Made by a program: the position numbers and the translations under genes. DNA of 64,000 nt, taken from IMG/VR virus record IMGVR_UViG_2861084961_000001, one strand, 5' to 3'. Below the pieces are notes generated by a model that was not told the origin of the DNA, did not search any database, and was given only the letters and a program-made list of their open reading frames with translations. This DNA comes from a virus (lineage: Duplodnaviria > Heunggongvirae > Uroviricota > Caudoviricetes). Shown piece after piece: positions 12,000-60,305 of this stretch. Numbering within the stretch: the stretch's first letter is position 1; every line of letters starts with the position of its first letter.

Positions 12000-12026
12000 A
12001 AGGCGTCCATAGGACGCCTTTTTTAT
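12000..12026 (+). terminator. rho-independent terminator AGGCGTCC-ATA-GGACGCCT plus T6
   Basis: Directly after the recombinase stop. Confidence 0.6.
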
Positions 12027-52025: not shown

Positions 52026-52759
52026 ATGAAAAAGTTGAAAAGTTTAGAAATCCCTGGGACTGGTTATAAATTCTTTATGGACAACGCGGAGTGTGCGCCT
52101 AACGCGTTGGAAAAAATACAAAGTCTTATCAACAGCCTTACTGAAGAAGCGAAAGAACTGAAGAGCGAGGCGACAAAGGACAATACAGCTAAAATCCAAT
52201 GCTTAAATCTCGTCTCTTATTGTTTATATCAAGTATCCAAAACACTGATTAAAGGCAATATCTATTACGACGATGAAGACACCTCGACACCTGAAGAAAA
52301 GATAGCGATGAAGAACTCTATGAAGATATCTCTACTAGTGCGGGTCACGCTGCCTTCGATGCTATGGGTAAATCGTCAGGCATCAGATCATTTGTTGAAC
52401 AGAACAATTCGACAATAATGATTGAGTACTGTGAACAAACAAGCTCCAAGGCCATACATGTTCTTCACGATGTTGCTGCAGGGGTTCGTTGTGAGGCTGA
52501 AGCGGTAAGAAAAGATGTATTTGGTGCAGACAGTAATACCGTGAAAGCGTTTATCAACAGTGCTCTGCTAAATTCTTACTCAAACCTTATAGTCAATGCG
52601 GCACTATGCGCAAATTCAGGTGAAGAACACATTGTCATAACCGAAACCAAACATGAGCATCAACAGTCACCAACCATAGAAGAGGTAACTGCATTGGCTA
52701 TCAAACAGGCGAGTGAAATTAGTGATGAAATTCTCTCTCTGCTAAACAAAACTAGGTAA
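52026..52759 (+). CDS. hypothetical protein (ORFs 52026..52418 and 52364..52759, probably one gene)
   Basis: ORF track; overlapping frames. Confidence 0.35.
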
Positions 52760-52869
52760 AACATTGATAATGGCGGTCACAATTTGATTCTTTTCTATAA
52801 GAATCCGTTGATCGCCACTACTCCCCTTCCATACCTGCAATCACATCCTTAAATATCAATAGGTTGTAG

Positions 52870-53660
52870 TTGTTTATACAAACAAGAAAACAACTGAATA
52901 ACAGATCAACGAAACGTCAACGCTTTCACCCGATTTGGTCTAAAAAATTGACGTTTTCACACATCACTTCTTATACCCGCAATCCTACGCAGCAGACAGC
53001 GCCACAGCGTCCAATTTTCACCACAGACGACCCAACACACCACCAACAAAAACACACGCTCAAAATCGCTCTCGTTGCGTTACATAACCATATAAACAAC
53101 TTATTTTCAGGCATAACAAAACAACTAAATAACACATACGCAATTCCCAAAAACAACCAACCTCTTTATTGCAGGCTACCGAAAAGACCCACCTCTTCTT
53201 CCCAGGCTACCGGACAACCAACCTAACTTTCACAGGCAATCCGAAAACATTCATGCGCGCGATACCCACGACACGCCATTCCCCAAACAGCGAAGAAACA
53301 CCTGAACCACCGAAACCCCAACGAAGCCTGTAACCGCAAGGATTCTCTCAATCCCAAAAGACACGAAACATAACAATCACGGGAAACGCCATTACCCAAT
53401 ACACGAATAACTACAAAAGCCTTTCACACACTCCAGACAAACAACTCAAACACAATAACGAAAGGAATCGCCCACCTGCCATTACTCCATACACGGAGAA
53501 GAACAAGCACCAAAACGACGAGAACATCCCACAGAAGAACCACCGCAAAACTAACGAAACCATTTACACCGACAGAGAGAACAACACACCCAATTCACCA
53601 ACAGAATTAGTCGCCGTATAGAACGTTCTGGAAGGAGTGAGCATTAACGTCCATAGAGAG
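52870..53660. repeat. strand-asymmetric CA-rich non-coding region containing CAGGCTACCG-type direct repeats
   Basis: Plus strand almost free of G or T runs for about 800 bp; only ORF there is low-complexity; repeats near 53170, 53200, 53235. Confidence 0.45.
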
Positions 53661-53779
53661 GTTGAGACAGATAAAACACGAAGAAAACACAACATGTATA
53701 GCGAAGAAGCCAGGTATGTATAAGTGGGGAGGGAAGGAGGGGTGTCGCCTCCTTTTTCGTATTTATTCAACTCCTGATT

Positions 53780-53960
53780 TTATCCCCCGTAACACCCCTA
53801 CGGTCAGCCTTCGGTCCATACAGGGAAAGGCTGCATCCCGCTACAGAAACGGCTGGGTTGCCTTTGGGGAACGGCTGGAGGTTTTCAGGGAAACGGTCGA
53901 GTTGCCTTTGTGGATTTCGGGAAAAGGCTCGATGCCGGTTCAGGAACGGCGGCGTACCGG
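53780..53960. repeat. array of about six GGGAAACGGCT-like direct repeats spaced 22-30 bp
   Basis: CAGGGAAAGGCTG, CAGAAACGGCTGG, GGGAACGGCTGG, GGGAAACGGTCG, GGGAAAAGGCTCG, CAGGAACGGCGG. Confidence 0.45.
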
Positions 53961-54286
53961 TATAGCGAGAGGGAGAGTTGCGGCTACCCACCTGTAATGT
54001 GCGGGAAGAAGAGAGGCGCTCACGTGCAGGCGGACTTGCTTACCGCTGGATTCCCTCTGAATGCCCAGCTACAGCGTAATTGTGCCAGACAGCCAACGGG
54101 TCACGATCGATTTCAGTAGGTTTTCGGGGAGAGGATTATTCTGTCCACCAGCCACCTTCGGCCACTAAATCAGAATAATGTAAAAAGTGTACTCGGTACT
54201 GAACCTGAAAACTCACTGCCAAAACCACATTCACCGGAATAAAATCCTTTTTCGCCTGTGCGTTATTGCGATAATAACACCAACAA

Positions 54287-54301
54287 GAAAACATGTTGTT
54301 T
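54287..54301. promoter_or_regulatory. motif B palindrome (GAAAACATGTTGTTT)
   Basis: Upstream of 54314 gene. Confidence 0.4.
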
Positions 54302-54313
54302 AAGGATTGCTTT

Positions 54314-54643
54314 ATGTTTGCACATATCGACATCAACCAAATTAAGAAATTGACTCAAAAAGAGTTTGACCAGTTCTATGAGCTGGAAGGTTGGTCTTCC
54401 ACTCTGATTAATTCAAGATGGGTGCTGGAGCTGATGACTCGTGATGACGCACCTGCTTTGATGATTAGCGACCTGGGTGAAGATGCTGACTTTATGGATA
54501 TGAGCGAATTTTGTGTGGACACATACAACCGCAGCCAGAAGTACTACTTCACATGCGATAGCGAGAATGACGTGATTTCTAAGGTCTATCTTCACCTCGT
54601 CCAGCATTGGGACGTTCAGGAGTTTCTTGAGGTATTCGCGTAA
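54314..54643 (+). CDS. hypothetical protein (109 aa)
   Basis: ATG 54314 inside track ORF 54293..54643; motif-B site upstream. Confidence 0.4.
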   Translation: MFAHIDINQIKKLTQKEFDQFYELEGWSSTLINSRWVLELMTRDDAPALMISDLGEDADFMDMSEFCVDTYNRSQKYYFTCDSENDVISKVYLHLVQHWDVQEFLEVFA

Positions 54644-54769
54644 ACCAATCAAAGCCAGCATTGCTGGCTTAATTTCTCTATAGCCGCAGGGAGGAACCTG
54701 CATATCGCTCATGCACCTGATCAATATGCTTTGTAGCCGTTTTCTTACTGGTATTATTTACGCCATTGA

Positions 54770-54783
54770 GAAAACAAGTTGTT
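54770..54783. promoter_or_regulatory. motif B palindrome (AAAACAA-G-TTGTTT)
   Basis: Upstream of 54796 gene. Confidence 0.45.
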
Positions 54784-55233: not shown

Positions 55234-55629
55234 ATGACCGTTAAACGCGAAAAACTGACAGTTGATGTTTACTATGCCTCTGAAACTGCCGAAGGTAAGA
55301 ATGTGGCAAAAATCACCGTTGTTACGTACAACACCGAAACTGGTGCCGAAGTCCAGGCCAGTACGATCGTGCGTAAAGGTGATGCCTCCGGCGGCGAGTA
55401 CGCGACTCAATACCAGTCCATTCTCGATGCAACTGACCCACTGCTGCTGAAAATCGAGAACTACTTCCGCCAGGTTGATGAAGAGGTGTTTGAAACCATG
55501 ATGAGTATGGTTAATTCCGTATTCACCTCCAGCCTGAACACTAGCACCACCTGGATTGGCCAGTACGGTCTGCGCATTACCTCCGGCATTCCTGCTGACA
55601 CCTTAATCCCTGAAAGCGTATTCGCTTAA
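55234..55629 (+). CDS. hypothetical protein (131 aa)
   Basis: ORF track; RBS GGAGAG. Confidence 0.45.
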   Translation: MTVKREKLTVDVYYASETAEGKNVAKITVVTYNTETGAEVQASTIVRKGDASGGEYATQYQSILDATDPLLLKIENYFRQVDEEVFETMMSMVNSVFTSSLNTSTTWIGQYGLRITSGIPADTLIPESVFA

Positions 55630-55638
55630 TCCTCTTTA

Positions 55639-55664
55639 AATGGCGCGTAAACCGCGCCATTTTC
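55639..55664 (+). terminator. rho-independent terminator AATGGCGCG-TAAAC-CGCGCCATT plus TTC
   Basis: Perfect 9-bp stem. Confidence 0.55.
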
Positions 55665-55673
55665 TTATGCCCG

Positions 55674-55690
55674 ATAACAATTTGTTTTCT
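55674..55690. promoter_or_regulatory. motif B palindrome (AACAA-T-TTGTT)
   Basis: Upstream of 55747 gene. Confidence 0.4.
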
Positions 55691-55746
55691 GCCTTATCTG
55701 ATTTGTGAAAATGATTTCACTGAAGCAACTTAATAAGGAAACCATC

Positions 55747-56121
55747 ATGGGACTTGATATCTATATCGAGACGCAGCCTAAAAACGATCTGAATAACGAG
55801 GCATCCAGAAAGCGGGTTGCTTACTTCCGTAAGTTCAATGCGCTCGTTGGGTGGATGGAGCGCAACGTAGGTGAAGTCGAAAATTGTGAGCTTTTAGAAT
55901 TAACGATGAATGACATTTGTTTTCTGAAGGCTCATTTGATGCACATAAATGAAAGTAATTGCGAAGAGTACTTGCCTACCCGGGAAGGTTTTTTCTTCGG
56001 CAGTCAGGAGTACGATGAAGGTTACTGGCATGACGTGGATAAGCTGAAAAAACTTGTGGAAGACCTGATCATGAACCACGACTTTCACAATAACAGACTG
56101 ACCTTCTGCGCCTGGTGGTAA
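55747..56121 (+). CDS. hypothetical protein (124 aa)
   Basis: ATG 55747 inside track ORF 55705..56121. Confidence 0.4.
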   Translation: MGLDIYIETQPKNDLNNEASRKRVAYFRKFNALVGWMERNVGEVENCELLELTMNDICFLKAHLMHINESNCEEYLPTREGFFFGSQEYDEGYWHDVDKLKKLVEDLIMNHDFHNNRLTFCAWW

Positions 56122-56124
56122 ATA

Positions 56125-56268
56125 TGGGCGATTTCAAGAAACGCCTGAAGGAAAGAGCCGAGATGGTCAGAAAGCGAAACGCCTATTCTGTCATCAGATA
56201 CGCAAGGCAGTTTAGTCGCAACAACAAATCAGTTGAGGAAAAGATCCTTAGCGTAATCGGGCGATAAT
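56125..56268 (+). CDS. small basic ORF (47 aa)
   Basis: Read from sequence; followed by hairpin AAGACCACC-AGCAT-TGGTGGTCTT at 56273-56296. Confidence 0.25.
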
Positions 56269-56436
56269 TATTAAGACCACCAGCATTGGTGGTCTTAAAT
56301 GACCATCCTGTTTCCCGCAGGCTAAAAACACCAACCTCTTACCTCCAGGCAACCGACAAACCCACCTGTTCCCGTCAGGCTACCGCAACTTTCCACTTTG
56401 ACGCCTTATTCGTACAACGATAATTAACGCCAACAA

Positions 56437-56451
56437 GAAAACAATTTGTTA
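56437..56451. promoter_or_regulatory. motif B palindrome (GAAAACAATTTGTTA)
   Basis: Upstream of 56472 gene. Confidence 0.4.
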
Positions 56452-56471
56452 TTTACGATAAGGAATTAATC

Positions 56472-56954
56472 ATGAATTTTATCGCTACTGTAAACGCACC
56501 CGCACATGGCAATATCGCTGTAACGTTCTCTGACATTGAAAAACGAGTACTTGGTGCCTGGCGTCACAATGAGACGGTAGAACTGTCAGCACAAGAAAAA
56601 TGCATTATTGCACGCGACATCATTGGCAATCGTCGTTACTCGCGGGTATTTGAGAAAGCGTATGTGGTAAATTCTGGATTCGGAACGTTCGTCTTTCCGG
56701 TGCGCTCCGGGCGATTCTGCCAGTCCAAGCTGATTGAGTTCGCTACGCAGATTTCTGTCTGGATTAAAACTCAATCGTCGTTCAAATTTTCCGACGATGA
56801 AGCAGTATCGCAGGGGATGCGGATCGCCAACAATGCAATTAAATGCAAAAACATTACGTATACCGCTGGCGTTGATACATGGAAACTGTTTTGCGCTAAC
56901 TTTATGCTGAATGTATACGCAAGCAACCGCATCCACATCCTTGATGGCGTGTAA
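56472..56954 (+). CDS. hypothetical protein (160 aa)
   Basis: ORF track; motif-B site upstream; followed by hairpin AGGGCC-AGAAAC-GGCCCT. Confidence 0.45.
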   Translation: MNFIATVNAPAHGNIAVTFSDIEKRVLGAWRHNETVELSAQEKCIIARDIIGNRRYSRVFEKAYVVNSGFGTFVFPVRSGRFCQSKLIEFATQISVWIKTQSSFKFSDDEAVSQGMRIANNAIKCKNITYTAGVDTWKLFCANFMLNVYASNRIHILDGV

Positions 56955-57570
56955 CTGAGAAGAGGGCCAGAAACGGCCCTTTCTCTATAGCCACCAGCTG
57001 CCGCAGGGAAATTTTCAGAAACGGCGAGGAACGTATTCATGAGCCGACGGGAAACGGCCAGGATTTTTTTCGGGAAACGGCTGTATTCGCCTTTATGTAG
57101 AAAAACATCGGGAAGCTGGTGGAATCCAACCAGCGGTTGTCGGACAGGTGAGCGGGGAAAATTATAATGACTTTCGTCGCCTGAGACATCCAGATTTCTT
57201 TCGTAGCATAATCACATACGTGATTAAGTGGTGTGATTATGTGAAAAATCACGCGCACATAATACGCGATCGGACACAGAACAAAACAAAATGCCGATCC
57301 GCACCGACAAATACACGCTGATCACATAGCAAGACTAAAAGCCAATGATTAACCATACTCTATAGCGCAATATAACGCGCTTTAAGCGCGTTAATGTGTT
57401 AAGTAATGGGTATGTACTGGCGAGGATATAAAAGCGCGACTATGGCGTTATTTTGGCGCTTATTTTTATGTTGTTGGAGTGAGTTAAAGACAATAAATAA
57501 CGCGCCAATGATGGCGCGTTATGGTGGGAGTATTGGAAACGAAAAAAGCGCCCATAGTGGGCGCTCGATT

Positions 57571-57798
57571 TTATTTATGTAAACTGATTTCAAATCCCAT
57601 TTCTACGAACGCTTTTAACATTAAAAATATATCAGCGTCGTTCACGTCTGCTTTTTTTCGCTCCTGGTCGCTCAATAAGTCAATTTTGCGCGTCGTTTCA
57701 TCTATAAGCTCAACAGATCCAGCGTAACCAGCGATCCCAGCAATATCATTAACACAATATTCATTGTGGACGTTAACGCCAGCGATAAGAACAAACAT
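57571..57798 (-). CDS. hypothetical protein (75 aa)
   Basis: ORF track; followed on minus strand by hairpin AGCGCCCA-TAG-TGGGCGCT and T-run. Confidence 0.35.
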   Translation of the reverse strand: MFVLIAGVNVHNEYCVNDIAGIAGYAGSVELIDETTRKIDLLSDQERKKADVNDADIFLMLKAFVEMGFEISLHK

Positions 57799-57819
57799 GA
57801 TTAAGCTCCTTAAAAAAAA

Positions 57820-58023
57820 TTAAATAGAATTTTGAAGTTTTCCGATTAATGCGCTTAAGCGTAAGTATTCACGTTTGCGCTTGCAATCTCGCTTGCTGTT
57901 AAGCAAATCAGAAAACGTAAAATTTAATTGGTCGCGTTGCGCGATCAAATCATCGATTAATTCCAGTTTGTAAGCGCGATACTTTGCGCGATATTCCGCG
58001 CGGATCTTGTCATAGCTGACCAT
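57820..58023 (-). CDS. hypothetical protein (67 aa)
   Basis: ORF track; strong AAGGAG RBS. Confidence 0.35.
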   Translation of the reverse strand: MVSYDKIRAEYRAKYRAYKLELIDDLIAQRDQLNFTFSDLLNSKRDCKRKREYLRLSALIGKLQNSI

Positions 58024-58070
58024 TTTAAAGCTCCTTTAAAGCGCCCATAGTGGGCGCTTGATTCCATTAA

Positions 58071-58720
58071 TTACGCTTTGAAAGCATCAGCTAGATAATT
58101 GTAGAAATCATTCTTGATAAAGCGATATTGCTGCGTACCAGCTTTGGCGCTTCCCATTCCTTTGACTTTCTCAACAAGTCCAAGACGTTCGCAAAGATTG
58201 ATCAACTGGTTGGCTTGAGTATAGCCAGCGTCCAATTTAATTTCGCACGCTTTTTTAGCTTCATTCATCAAATCGAAAACAGCGCCATTAGTGAACGTGT
58301 CGATCTCGTCGTTAATCATATCGATTAAAGCGAATACACGAGATCCAGACATATCAGCGACGGAATAAACACATTTACCAGCTTTAATGGATTTAACCAG
58401 ATAAACCAGTTTTCCAGTGAATAACTATTAGTCATAGCATCACGGAAAAATACTTCTGGCGCTTGTTTGCTTGCTTTAATCGCATAGTAGAAAACAGAGC
58501 ATAATTTTTCGTCTTCTACAGCGTTTACAACGTTGTTGATGAAGTAAGCAAGTTTAGTGGTCGCAGCTTGCATATTTGCTTTGTCTGCTTTAGTGTGCGT
58601 ACCATTTTTATAATGTTCGTTATATGTTTGAGTTGCCAGATCTGCTTTTTCGCGCAGCTCGTCGGATACAATAGATGCAGCTTCAATGATGGACTTTTTA
58701 GAAATGATAATGTTAGCCAT
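58071..58720 (-). CDS. hypothetical protein (ORFs 58325..58720 and 58071..58352, probably one gene)
   Basis: ORF track; overlapping frames. Confidence 0.35.
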
Positions 58721-59001
58721 GATAATTTTTCCTTATGTAAATTTAAAATTTATTGTCGTTAGCGTCTTCGCTTTCGACGAGTTCAATTATCGATATGCGA
58801 AAAAAGATTGCAAGTATTTTTTTTAAATTTTTTGCAGGGATGAAAGTCCTAGAAATAAAAGCGAGATCGTCGAAGGTGTTCCCTAAATAAATAATCGATT
58901 CCGGCTTTCGACCTTATATATTTAGGTTGTTTGATTTATAGATATAAAGAAGTGATGTGAAAAATAATAACCGGACTTAGCCGGTTATTAACCTTATAGA
59001 T

Positions 59002-59310
59002 TTATTGAACAGACTCTACAGCCTTACGATTGGTGTCAAATAGCGCATCAACGAACTGTGCCGATGACTCGCTAGATTCGCAATCCAACATTGCCCGTTC
59101 TTCATTTGCCACTTTCTTACACAGTTCCACATTCTCACCTATCGCTTTTCCTGCTTTTACGGCTGCCGAAAATTGATACATGCAAACTGATACATTCTGA
59201 GATGTTGAGCACACGTCATTCATCAGCGACTGAATGACAGGCTTATAGTCCATTGCATTTGCTGCAACTGAGCAAAGTAAAAAAAATGGTGGTAACAATA
59301 TCGATTTCAT
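59002..59310 (-). CDS. secreted Cys-containing small protein with signal peptide
   Basis: MKSILLPPFFLLCSVAANA signal-like N-terminus. Confidence 0.4.
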   Translation of the reverse strand: MKSILLPPFFLLCSVAANAMDYKPVIQSLMNDVCSTSQNVSVCMYQFSAAVKAGKAIGENVELCKKVANEERAMLDCESSESSAQFVDALFDTNRKAVESVQ

Positions 59311-59353
59311 AACTCAAAAAGGCAAAATTCGCTCAACCCAATCGAACAAATAA

Positions 59354-59836
59354 CTATTTTTCTACCGTTCTCGACACGTAGTGTAACCTGACAAGCATCT
59401 GCGCCTGCTGACACCCCTCAATTTCACGGCCATCCGCCATGTACACTCTTATAGATTTGTTTGCTTTATAGGCTTGGTTGCAAATAGCAAAAAAATCGCG
59501 GCGTGATGGCCGATTATCGACATAATCAGGATGAACTGTTAATCGACCTTTGAAATCGTGAGCGATACTGTCAACCACACCTGATTCAATTGTACTAATG
59601 CGTTCAAGTGGGAGCCTTATACGATTTTCTTTGTCAAAAGGGGCTGGGCAAAGGTCAACTTTGTTACGAGATGGCATGAGGCCATAAACGTACATGCAAA
59701 ACGCCTGGCCATCTTCCAGAGTGGCCCTTACAGGAATTTGTTCTCTGCGCCAGAACATCAGTAGTTTTTCAACGTTAGTGTAATCTCGCGGCCAGAGTTC
59801 AGCTTGGATACCGTAGGTAATATCTTTGGTTGTCAT
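59354..59836 (-). CDS. hypothetical protein (160 aa)
   Basis: Internal ATG 59836 directly after the upstream stop inside track ORF 59354..59914. Confidence 0.4.
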   Translation of the reverse strand: MTTKDITYGIQAELWPRDYTNVEKLLMFWRREQIPVRATLEDGQAFCMYVYGLMPSRNKVDLCPAPFDKENRIRLPLERISTIESGVVDSIAHDFKGRLTVHPDYVDNRPSRRDFFAICNQAYKANKSIRVYMADGREIEGCQQAQMLVRLHYVSRTVEK

Positions 59837-59840
59837 GTCA

Positions 59841-60305
59841 TCACAGAGTTGTTGGCAGAATGTCGATGTCGCCAGAATTGCTGGTGAACACCCTGAACGC
59901 TTTTGTGTCTCCATTCTTCAGAGTCGTTTCTCGCTCTTGACGAGCGGGGTTTAGAGCACATAAACCTGCACCTTCAAGAGATGCACCCACAATTAATTCT
60001 CCGGCATTTAAATGGAAAGTCGCTTTTTCGCCTGTAGCCAGTTTTGCGACAGTTTCGCCGTTGATGAAAATGGAAGCATCACATCCAGCTCCTACAAAAC
60101 CTGTGTCTCTCATTACCACCAACGTAGCTGGCGCTGCGCTTTGATACTTGAACACTTTGGCCTGCGGTGCTGGTTTGGCGTCATGGATTGATATTGGGCG
60201 TGATTGGCACGCGGTAAGCATCAACACTGGTAACGTTAGTAGAGGGAGAAGCGAGTATTTCATGATAGTTTTAGAACAGAAAGTGAACAGTATGGGAGAC
60301 TTCAT
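59841..60305 (-). CDS. lipoprotein (lipobox LTAC), Gly/Ala-rich beta-type
   Basis: MKYSLLPLLTLPVLMLTAC signal with lipobox; RBS AGGGAGA before ATG 60305. Confidence 0.5.
   Translation of the reverse strand: MKSPILFTFCSKTIMKYSLLPLLTLPVLMLTACQSRPISIHDAKPAPQAKVFKYQSAAPATLVVMRDTGFVGAGCDASIFINGETVAKLATGEKATFHLNAGELIVGASLEGAGLCALNPARQERETTLKNGDTKAFRVFTSNSGDIDILPTTL

Follow-up and report, generated by a model that had tools for sequence, protein, structure and literature searches.

The four GC-rich hairpins clustered in this stretch of DNA are most likely ordinary transcription-terminator stem-loops, which would end a minus-strand operon of an SSU5/pHCM2-type phage-plasmid. One of these hairpins, hairpin H, is unusually invariant and is duplicated around a small variable gene slot, so that it accounts for two of the four (hp3 and hp4). 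The cluster can mostly be explained as stacked hairpins of intrinsic-terminator type at a place where two operons of the phage-plasmid converge. We consider it probable that the hairpins form a local family of Rho-independent terminator type, in which hp4, lying between two genes, has an attenuating or protective function and the H copies border a hyperplastic slot. As terminators the hairpins are ordinary, and the value of identifying them lies mainly in annotation: they show where the minus-strand unit ends and delimit a conserved ORF-free gap on one side. This annotation applies to clinically widespread phage-plasmids, including SSU5, pHCM2, pMT1 and their E. coli and Klebsiella relatives.

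Positions 56900-58700 of the window, by which we mean the whole stretch of 64,000 nucleotides that was analysed, share 95.9% identity with Escherichia phage PhiR41_1 and 98.4% with pMRY16-002_2, an E. coli plasmid of 109 kb. This region matches 240 E. coli plasmids and 0 chromosomes. More distant matches were found in Salmonella phage SSU5, in pHCM2 and in Yersinia pestis pMT1, as well as in plasmids of Klebsiella, Enterobacter, Citrobacter and Cronobacter, and the locus is syntenic across all of these. Given the matches to PhiR41_1, the E. coli plasmids, SSU5, pHCM2 and pMT1, we therefore assign the window to an E. coli phage-plasmid of the SSU5/pHCM2/pMT1 type, of which it forms a part. According to the annotation of a relative, almost all genes lie on the window's plus strand and one minus-strand block is the exception. 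This block encodes a DEAD-box helicase and several small proteins, including a FljA-like PF03614 protein, p216 and the products of a 67-aa and a 75-aa ORF, and it converges on a plus-strand operon which ends at 56954. The gap between the two, 56955-57570 (616 bp), is ORF-free, has no annotated gene in any relative and is kept across genera; the preliminary description had put this ORF-free stretch at 400 bp, which is too short. Its description of the region as AT-rich holds in a mild form, with 37-42% GC here vs 39-52% in the other 1-kb blocks of the window. The features of the locus are:

56957-56986, plus strand: terminator of the converging operon, GGGCC-agaaac-GGCCC followed by TTTCTCT, -19.3 kcal/mol
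57373-57393, no strand assigned: hp1, TAACGCGCTT-t-AAGCGCGTTA, a perfect 10-bp palindrome with a 1-nt loop (or 9 bp with a 3-nt loop)
57430-57470, no strand assigned: degenerate hairpin of the AACGCG series, which in other lineages reads AAAACGCG-ttaaattgg-CGCGTTT
57497-57522, minus strand: hp2, ATAACGCGCCA-atga-TGGCGCGTTAT on the plus strand and ATAACGCGCCA-tcat-TGGCGCGTTAT in the sense direction, with an 11-bp stem and a 4-nt loop, followed by TTATTGTCTTT
57535-57546, minus strand: U-tract of hp3, TTTTTCGTTTCC in the sense direction, six U counting the stem-closing T
57547-57565, minus strand: hp3, the terminal copy of hairpin H, AGCGCCCA-tag-TGGGCGCT, in the sense direction AGCGCCCA-cta-TGGGCGCT
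57571-57798, minus strand: 75-aa ORF, family B (PHROG 1585), the second variable slot gene
57820-58023, minus strand: 67-aa ORF, family A (PHROG 6145), one of the two variable slot genes
58031-58036, minus strand: Shine-Dalgarno sequence of the 67-aa ORF (AAGGAG on the sense strand), part of a conserved linker of hairpin and Shine-Dalgarno sequence
58039-58059, minus strand: hp4, the second copy of hairpin H, with the 19-mer at 58040-58058, extendable to 9 bp
58071-58720, minus strand: p216 gene (PHROG 1513), with hairpin H always 3' of it and with an intact 216-aa CDS in a relative

The plus-strand terminator at 56957-56986 forms the other edge of the ORF-free gap, and in other genera its arms read GGGGC...GCCCC, a compensatory change. 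In the window a 1-nt deletion, which falls in an A5 run near 58414, shifts the reading frame of p216. The proteins p216, p160, p75 and p67 have no relatives in Pfam, NCBIfam, PADLOC or PDB and match only PHROGs without an assigned function; the label 'MIT/CorA transporter' attached to family A, the 67-aa protein, is most likely an annotation artefact originating from SSU5. A scan for promoter-like sites on the minus strand gave none between p216 and the small ORFs and none in or adjoining either copy of H.

All four hairpins that had been reported are present in the sequence, and the claim that hp3 and hp4 are identical 19-mers was correct: AGCGCCCAtagTGGGCGCT occupies 57547-57565 and 58040-58058, and the common 19-mer, AGCGCCCATAGTGGGCGCT, was matched in 0 shuffles. 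The position first given for hp3 was exact, that of hp1 (57372-57392) should read 57373-57393, and hp2, which had been described as 9 bp at 57503-57524, has in fact an 11-bp stem at 57497-57522. The 19-mer is the core of a 34-nt direct repeat with 88% identity (57545-57578 and 58038-58071). It was also reasonable to regard the hairpins as a related set. The 9-nt arm ATAACGCGC is shared by hp1 and hp2, the inner stem of hp2 (GCGCCA/TGGCGC) differs from that of hp3 and hp4 only in having one C:G pair fewer per arm, and distant relatives carry near-exact copies of the hp3 hairpin at the hp2 position; one family with two sub-types is therefore a fair description. The window has 33 perfect hairpins whose stem reaches 8 bp or more, compared with 6.1 +/- 2.6 in first-order Markov simulations, and the four hairpins within 700 bp are the window maximum, exceeding every simulation. 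A search of Rfam with 55500-59500 gave nothing credible (best E-value 0.76, to an unrelated actinobacterial sRNA) and one with 52500-54500 gave no matches, while a full-text literature search for the hairpin sequence found no paper.

What do these hairpins do? Read in the minus-strand direction, hp3 is AGCGCCCAcuaUGGGCGCU, with UUUUUCGUUUCC directly after it, and it begins 5 nt past the stop codon of the 75-aa ORF, the last minus-strand gene before the convergent operon. The fold energies on this strand are -15.5 kcal/mol for both hp3 and hp4, -18.2 for hp2 and -12.6 for hp1, all four better than shuffled sequences (z from -2.3 to -6.9, with -3.7 for hp3 and -6.9 for hp2), and a terminator scan of the minus strand detected hp3 and hp2. 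The sequence UUUUUUCGUUUC which follows hp3 on the sense strand is invariant in the relatives: the tail TTTTTTCGTTTC is kept in every one, the positions of the U-tract have a majority fraction of 0.9-1.0, and the 30-nt block GAAACGAAAAAAGCGCCCATAGTGGGCGCT, comprising stem and tail, does not vary among 11 diverse relatives, which represent seven genera. The plus-strand tails of the hairpins differ between lineages and are not conserved, and the minus strand is therefore taken as the functional orientation. We set aside a plus-strand sRNA ending at the hairpins, as conservation of the T-tails it would need and of the candidate promoters at 57141-57212 is confined to the E. coli clade.

The reading of hp3 as a terminator is thus well supported by the GC-rich stem, the conserved U-tract and the position 5 nt past a stop codon, and hp3 (H with U6) would end the minus-strand unit consisting of p216, the 67-aa ORF and the 75-aa ORF. 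A role of hp2, which lies 25 nt downstream of hp3 on the minus strand, as a back-up terminator is also supported. The preliminary description had placed hp2 with the remaining hairpins and not with the two terminators. In most relatives it takes the form AACGCGCCA-N4-TGGCGCGTT plus TTTTATTGTCT, or in full AACGCGCCA-N4-UGGCGCGUU followed by UUUUAUUGUCU; the U-tract, uninterrupted in these relatives (UUUUAUUGUCU), is interrupted in the window (UUAUUUAUUG). In all, the hairpins resemble known intrinsic terminators, including the tandem and bidirectional ones at convergent junctions, in the GC-rich stem of 8-11 bp, the loop of 3-4 nt, the U-run directly after the stem (in hp3) and the position 5-13 nt past stop codons at an operon end facing a convergent operon. 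They differ from them in the H stem, which is far more invariant than usual and lacks compensatory changes, and in the truncated U-tract of hp4, which runs straight into a Shine-Dalgarno sequence. The same design, a GC-rich stem of 8-9 bp with a 3-nt loop and a T-run, recurs elsewhere in the window at 12000, 29693 and 48202. A near-identical hairpin, AGCGCCCATATGGGCGCT with a T-run, is located 3' of eexN in unrelated mcr plasmids of IncX type (TaxC/TaxA relaxosome).

It had been claimed that two hairpins terminate minus-strand genes, and this is well supported for hp3 with its stem, U-tract and proximity to a stop; hp4 does follow a gene, but it could be a leaky terminator at best. It is situated 11-13 nt past the stop of p216, with the Shine-Dalgarno sequence of the 67-aa ORF directly downstream, and relatives have it in the same position. 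In the window it is followed by UUUAAAGGAG, with only three U before this Shine-Dalgarno sequence, and the stretch UUUAAAGGAGCUUUAAAAUG after it supplies the 67-aa ORF with its ribosome-binding site and start codon. Since only three U precede the Shine-Dalgarno sequence, hp4 is probably a leaky terminator or an RNA-stabilizing, intercistronic hairpin. Among relatives the corresponding copy is followed by TTTAAAGGAG, TTTTAAGGAG or TAGTTTTAAGGA, most other lineages have 4-5 U at this place (TTTTAAGG, TAGTTTTAAGGA), and tails of the form UUUUAAGGAG or UAGUUUUAAGGA also occur. With 3-5 U before the Shine-Dalgarno sequence, hp4 would attenuate read-through, protect the 3' end of the upstream p216 RNA, or both. 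We infer that transcription ends at hp3 and partially reads through hp4, and such attenuation would set the expression of the two small genes, which are without a consensus promoter of their own.

Could hp4, and possibly all copies of H, be a non-terminating element of RNA processing or stability, which blocks exonucleases after cleavage and uncouples the RNA levels of p216 from those of the small ORFs? Intercistronic REPs have such an uncoupling effect in E. coli operons, and the three U past hp4 in the window, its position immediately upstream of the Shine-Dalgarno sequence and a weak second hairpin predicted over that sequence all agree with this possibility. We regard it as a tentative alternative and on the whole an unlikely one, because 4-5 U follow the hp4 copy in most other lineages, an identical hairpin with U6 serves as the apparent operon-end terminator, and a stem of 8-9 bp is too short for RNase III. 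The stability explanation partly overlaps with the terminator explanation rather than excluding it.

Conservation of H was assessed across relatives. Using loci chosen by p216 and not by the hairpin, we found the 7-bp stem GCGCCCA/TGGGCGC intact in 43/44 distinct contexts for the p216-proximal copy and in 56/57 for the terminal copy, with a majority fraction of 0.77-0.87 in the loop and 0.55-0.82 in the flanks. Pair counting gave no covariation in H, where 6/7 pairs never vary, a result that is uninformative on RNA structure, and for hp2 covariation was almost nil (one pair changed on both sides, in two distant sequences). The hairpin structure is accordingly drawn from energy, position and U-tract and not from covariation. 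As a control we used the recA terminator of the same phage-plasmid family. Its 7-bp core is kept in about 63/80 loci, in which RecA is 92-100% identical, while its loop varies freely and one compensatory variant occurs; among viral contigs, 2 contain the exact 19-mer of this terminator, 27 that of a second control terminator and 94 that of H. By this comparison H follows the family pattern of a conserved stem and a free loop, and is clearly at its conserved extreme. As H is more invariant than the control terminators, selection on terminator strength alone may be insufficient to account for its conservation, which leaves some room for an additional, sequence-specific role.

The commonest loop variant of H is an exact flip, CTA/TAG, to the reverse complement, and the loops of hp2 flip likewise (atga/tcat and ttgt/acaa). 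Inversion of the whole segment between hairpins was rejected as the origin of these flips, since the ORFs stay on one strand throughout and single loops flip independently of each other. Inverted loops at perfect hairpins are a known footprint of template switching (PMC8794818; PMC5941160), and perfect inverted repeats become over-conserved through template-switch correction (PMC5941160). The hairpins resemble template-switched inverted repeats in their exact conservation across orthologous regions and in loop inversions that leave no footprint in the stem. These studies (PMC5941160; PMC8794818) provide a mutational mechanism and not a function, and may explain part of the invariance, but not the position of the hairpin.

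A different explanation would be that H is primarily a sequence-specific recognition site, either an operator or centromere-like palindrome in DNA or an RNA hairpin bound by a regulator, and that its likeness to a terminator is secondary. Candidates for binding it are p216 itself, the FljA-like repressor encoded 1.3 kb upstream and ParB-like proteins 4 kb away. In about 100 distinct contexts the stem stays the same although the flanks diverge, even where p216 is only 49-61% identical, and this, together with the excess of conservation over the control terminators and the strict linkage of H to the 3' end of p216, would suit a recognition site. The same is true of the free loop orientation, which is expected if symmetric half-sites matter, and of the PF03614 protein encoded in the operon; FljA acts on fliC mRNA. 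As an operator, such a site would be odd in its location at gene 3' ends and in the 3-bp spacing of its 8-bp half-sites, and searches with p216 brought up neither a known family nor a solved structure. The conserved U-tract has a direction, which fits termination, and the near-identical apparent terminator of the unrelated IncX-type plasmids occurs without the candidate proteins. Template-switch correction (PMC5941160) offers another source of the over-conservation. We thus find a primary recognition role improbable and treat protein binding, or any other sequence-specific role of H, as a minority possibility.

The preliminary description had also proposed that the hairpins could be REP-like elements. 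In the 109-kb genome of the 98%-identical relative, the 19-mer is present in two copies, both at this locus, a distribution that contradicts the REP-like idea; uniqueness to this locus is what the preliminary description had itself named as a ground for refutation. An exact-match scan of IMG/VR for the 19-mer gave 94 stretches, and among the 80 loci listed a p216 homologue adjoins the hairpin in 79, even at 49-61% p216 identity; the remaining one is an unrelated contig in which the exact 19-mer is followed by TTTCTT. The 19-mer is therefore a handy sequence marker, almost exclusive to this family (79/80 of the IMG/VR loci listed). When 32 nt around hp3 were searched against 5,426 complete E. 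coli genomes, 673/674 places were on plasmids and one was on a chromosome. REPs, in contrast, are imperfect, about 35 nt long, associated with RAYT transposases and dispersed in hundreds of chromosomal copies. H resembles REP and BIME elements as a GC-rich intergenic or intercistronic palindrome that may stabilize upstream mRNA and terminate weakly, and differs from them as a perfect 19-mer at one plasmid locus.

Might the hairpins nevertheless be miniature mobile elements in a broader sense (REP/BIME, targets of RAYT- or IS200-type enzymes, or attC-like sites), dispersed through an element-specific enzyme? The small ORFs, which are promoterless, lie between identical copies, tandem multiplications of 44-47 nt exist in some lineages, and the genome encodes a tyrosine recombinase. 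This recombinase gene is the sole one and lies about 50 kb away on the 109-kb circle, no integrase gene adjoins H, and the genome annotation of the relative contains no transposase. Integron attC sites are imperfect palindromes, 57-141 nt long, that contain R''/L''/L'/R' boxes and extrahelical bases and lie beside an intI/attI platform; H, a perfect 19-nt palindrome without an adjacent integrase gene, was rejected as a site of this type, as it has neither the length, the bulges nor the R/L boxes. It also appears to lack the REP consensus. Neither family A nor family B was ever observed together with H elsewhere. With two copies in the 109-kb genome, linkage to p216 and an almost entirely plasmid-borne occurrence, a dispersed REP-like family is therefore ruled out, and the mobile-element explanation as a whole appears largely refuted by the distribution; we hold it to be extremely improbable.

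The gene slot between the H copies differs in content among relatives. It contains no ORF (with a single H), family A (67 aa), family B (75-76 aa), A+B as in the window, or B+B, and the architectures found are H, H-A-H, H-B-H, H-A-B-H, H-B-H-B-H with three hairpins, H-A-H-H and tandem repeats of H, the last reflecting 44-47-nt duplications of H with its spacer. Three architectures occur among plasmids in which p216 is at least 96% identical and four in a clade at 80-90%; a p216 profile search of GTDB species representatives gave five loci, all with the same architecture. The borders of the slot do not vary: upstream there is always the p216 stop codon, about 13 nt, H and a Shine-Dalgarno sequence, and downstream the order is always H, UUUUUUCGUUUC, hp2. 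On one side homology is lost at the edge of H, on the other past H and the Shine-Dalgarno sequence. In single-H genomes, the p216-type upstream flank and the terminal-type downstream flank are fused at H, the product expected of a crossover between two H copies. An exact palindrome of 17-19 bp brackets a small slot which turns over between near-identical plasmids. The two H copies and the linker to the Shine-Dalgarno sequence would be the fixed borders of this hyperplastic slot, and we infer that its contents are duplicated, deleted and exchanged by recombination or replication slippage at the short repeat, with which the patterns fit. For phage-plasmids the slot would be a clean case, testable by PCR, of a short repeat mediating gene gain and loss.

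The closest described parallel is the promoter-early stem-loops (PeSLs) of T4-type phages, mobile regulatory cassettes which mediate modular shuffling (PMC2839356, PMC4122927). In both cases a short conserved repeat with a terminator stem-loop flanks small non-essential ORFs in a hyperplastic region, and insertions, deletions or replacements between close relatives are bordered by the repeat. However, a PeSL consists of a strong sigma-70-like early promoter and a terminator stem-loop, is present in dozens of copies across several hyperplastic regions of a T4-like phage genome and gives mini-circle products, whereas the H repeat has no promoter, combines a hairpin with a Shine-Dalgarno sequence and occurs in 2-3 copies at one locus of a siphovirus-type phage-plasmid. 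The H repeat, promoterless and confined to one locus, is therefore not a PeSL. Is it possible that H and its linker nonetheless work as a PeSL-like portable junction, a maintained or recognized palindrome which actively drives the turnover of accessory genes downstream of p216 and is perhaps bound by p216 or the FljA-like protein to gate read-through? We think this rather unlikely, and if true it would account for a stem that does not change between genera, even next to a protein of only about 50% identity.

Lastly, the hairpins might belong to a cis-acting region for replication or maintenance, in which the gap is a locus of the origin or incompatibility type with iteron-like GAAACGGC repeats and the hairpins are priming or structural signals. 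There are four invariant (C/G)(A/G)GAAACGGC repeats at 56968-57081 and a second repeat cluster with a 22-nt period at 53846-53950, the 616-bp gap is kept across genera, and the element encodes its own primase, helicase and polymerase. Against these points, the hairpins abut stop codons with directional U-tracts, H is also found between genes as hp4, the RepB initiator gene is annotated at a distance of about 37 kb in the window and the exact 10-nt pattern is absent beside it, so that we rate a replication role as very improbable. Within the same gap, hp1 has no U-tract on either strand and its perfect palindromic form was found only in the window; 39 relatives read TAACGCGTTTTAAGCGCGTTA at this position and others have further disrupting substitutions. 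It is probably a lineage-restricted, decaying paralogue of hp2. The element at 57430-57470 is weak in the window (-6.2 and -11.5 kcal/mol on the minus and plus strands, respectively, neither value being significant), and both it and hp1 would be decaying local duplicates of an hp2-type hairpin.

Tandem duplications of hairpin H, the identical 19-mer stem-loop, together with a spacer of 25-28 nt were found in distant SSU5-like lineages, at 1497-1603 in locus L066, 8080-8142 in L035 and 11795-11860 in L041. These arrays comprise two to three units with a period of 44-47 nt and identical spacers, and this arrangement shows that the hairpin multiplies locally. A near-identical hairpin, AGCGCCCATATGGGCGCT followed by a T-run, is also present at 2500-2530 of L196, the IncX-type mcr plasmid pMUB-MIN12-MCR, and it is located 3' of the eexN gene in unrelated plasmids of 33-41 kb. 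The eexN-associated hairpin either arose by convergent evolution or is a transferred terminator. Within the window, another GCGC-core hairpin resembles in sequence hp2, the putative back-up terminator of the minus-strand unit, and it is probably the terminator of the ORF which it follows. This hairpin and the repeated elements discussed below are as follows:

55638-55662, hairpin AAATGGCGCG-taaac-CGCGCCATTT, then TCTTAT, directly 3' of plus-strand ORF 55234..55629
56968-57081, iteron-like direct repeats, cluster 1, four copies built on GAAACGGC, in the ORF-free gap
53846-53950, iteron-like direct repeats, cluster 2, built on GAAACGGC, period of about 22 nt, 3 kb upstream of cluster 1
54246-54300, 54729-54783 and 56396-56450, also 55673-55686, repeated 55-nt element, 5' of several of the small ORFs on the plus strand
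57207-57241, overlapping inverted repeats TAATCAC-atac-GTGATTA and CATAATCACA/TGTGATTATG, inside the ORF-free gap

The two iteron-like clusters flank a block of small plus-strand genes, one on each side. Five exact copies of the 10-nt pattern are present where 0.45 would be expected, and the four gap copies do not vary across seven genera. It is possible that the clusters serve as origin, incompatibility or regulator-binding sites. The 55-nt element, which ends in the palindromic motif GAAAACAAnTTGTT, looks like a promoter or operator common to a small regulon. The inverted repeats at 57207-57241 adjoin two plus-strand promoter-like sites (57141-57168 and 57183-57212) and were seen in the E. 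coli clade only; perhaps they form a lineage-specific operator or promoter within the gap. About 1.5 kb at approximately 52758-54311 carries no annotated gene in the relative and gave no match in Rfam. Inside it lies an A+C-rich, strongly skewed stretch (53400-53700), and the AT and GC skews of 53001-54000 are +0.33 and -0.19.

On the minus strand, the gene of p216 (58071-58720), upstream of the hp4 copy of hairpin H, is divided between two ORFs, 58325..58720 and 58071..58352. This is due to the deletion of one nucleotide from an A5 run near 58414, which turns GGAAAAAC into GGAAAAC when compared with the 98%-identical plasmid, whose 216-aa CDS is intact. The split gene is either a pseudogene or the product of a homopolymer sequencing error. 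The same minus-strand block includes a gene for a FljA-like protein (59354-59914; PF03614, 'repressor of phase-1 flagellin', E = 2.8e-67). FljA of Salmonella acts on fliC mRNA.
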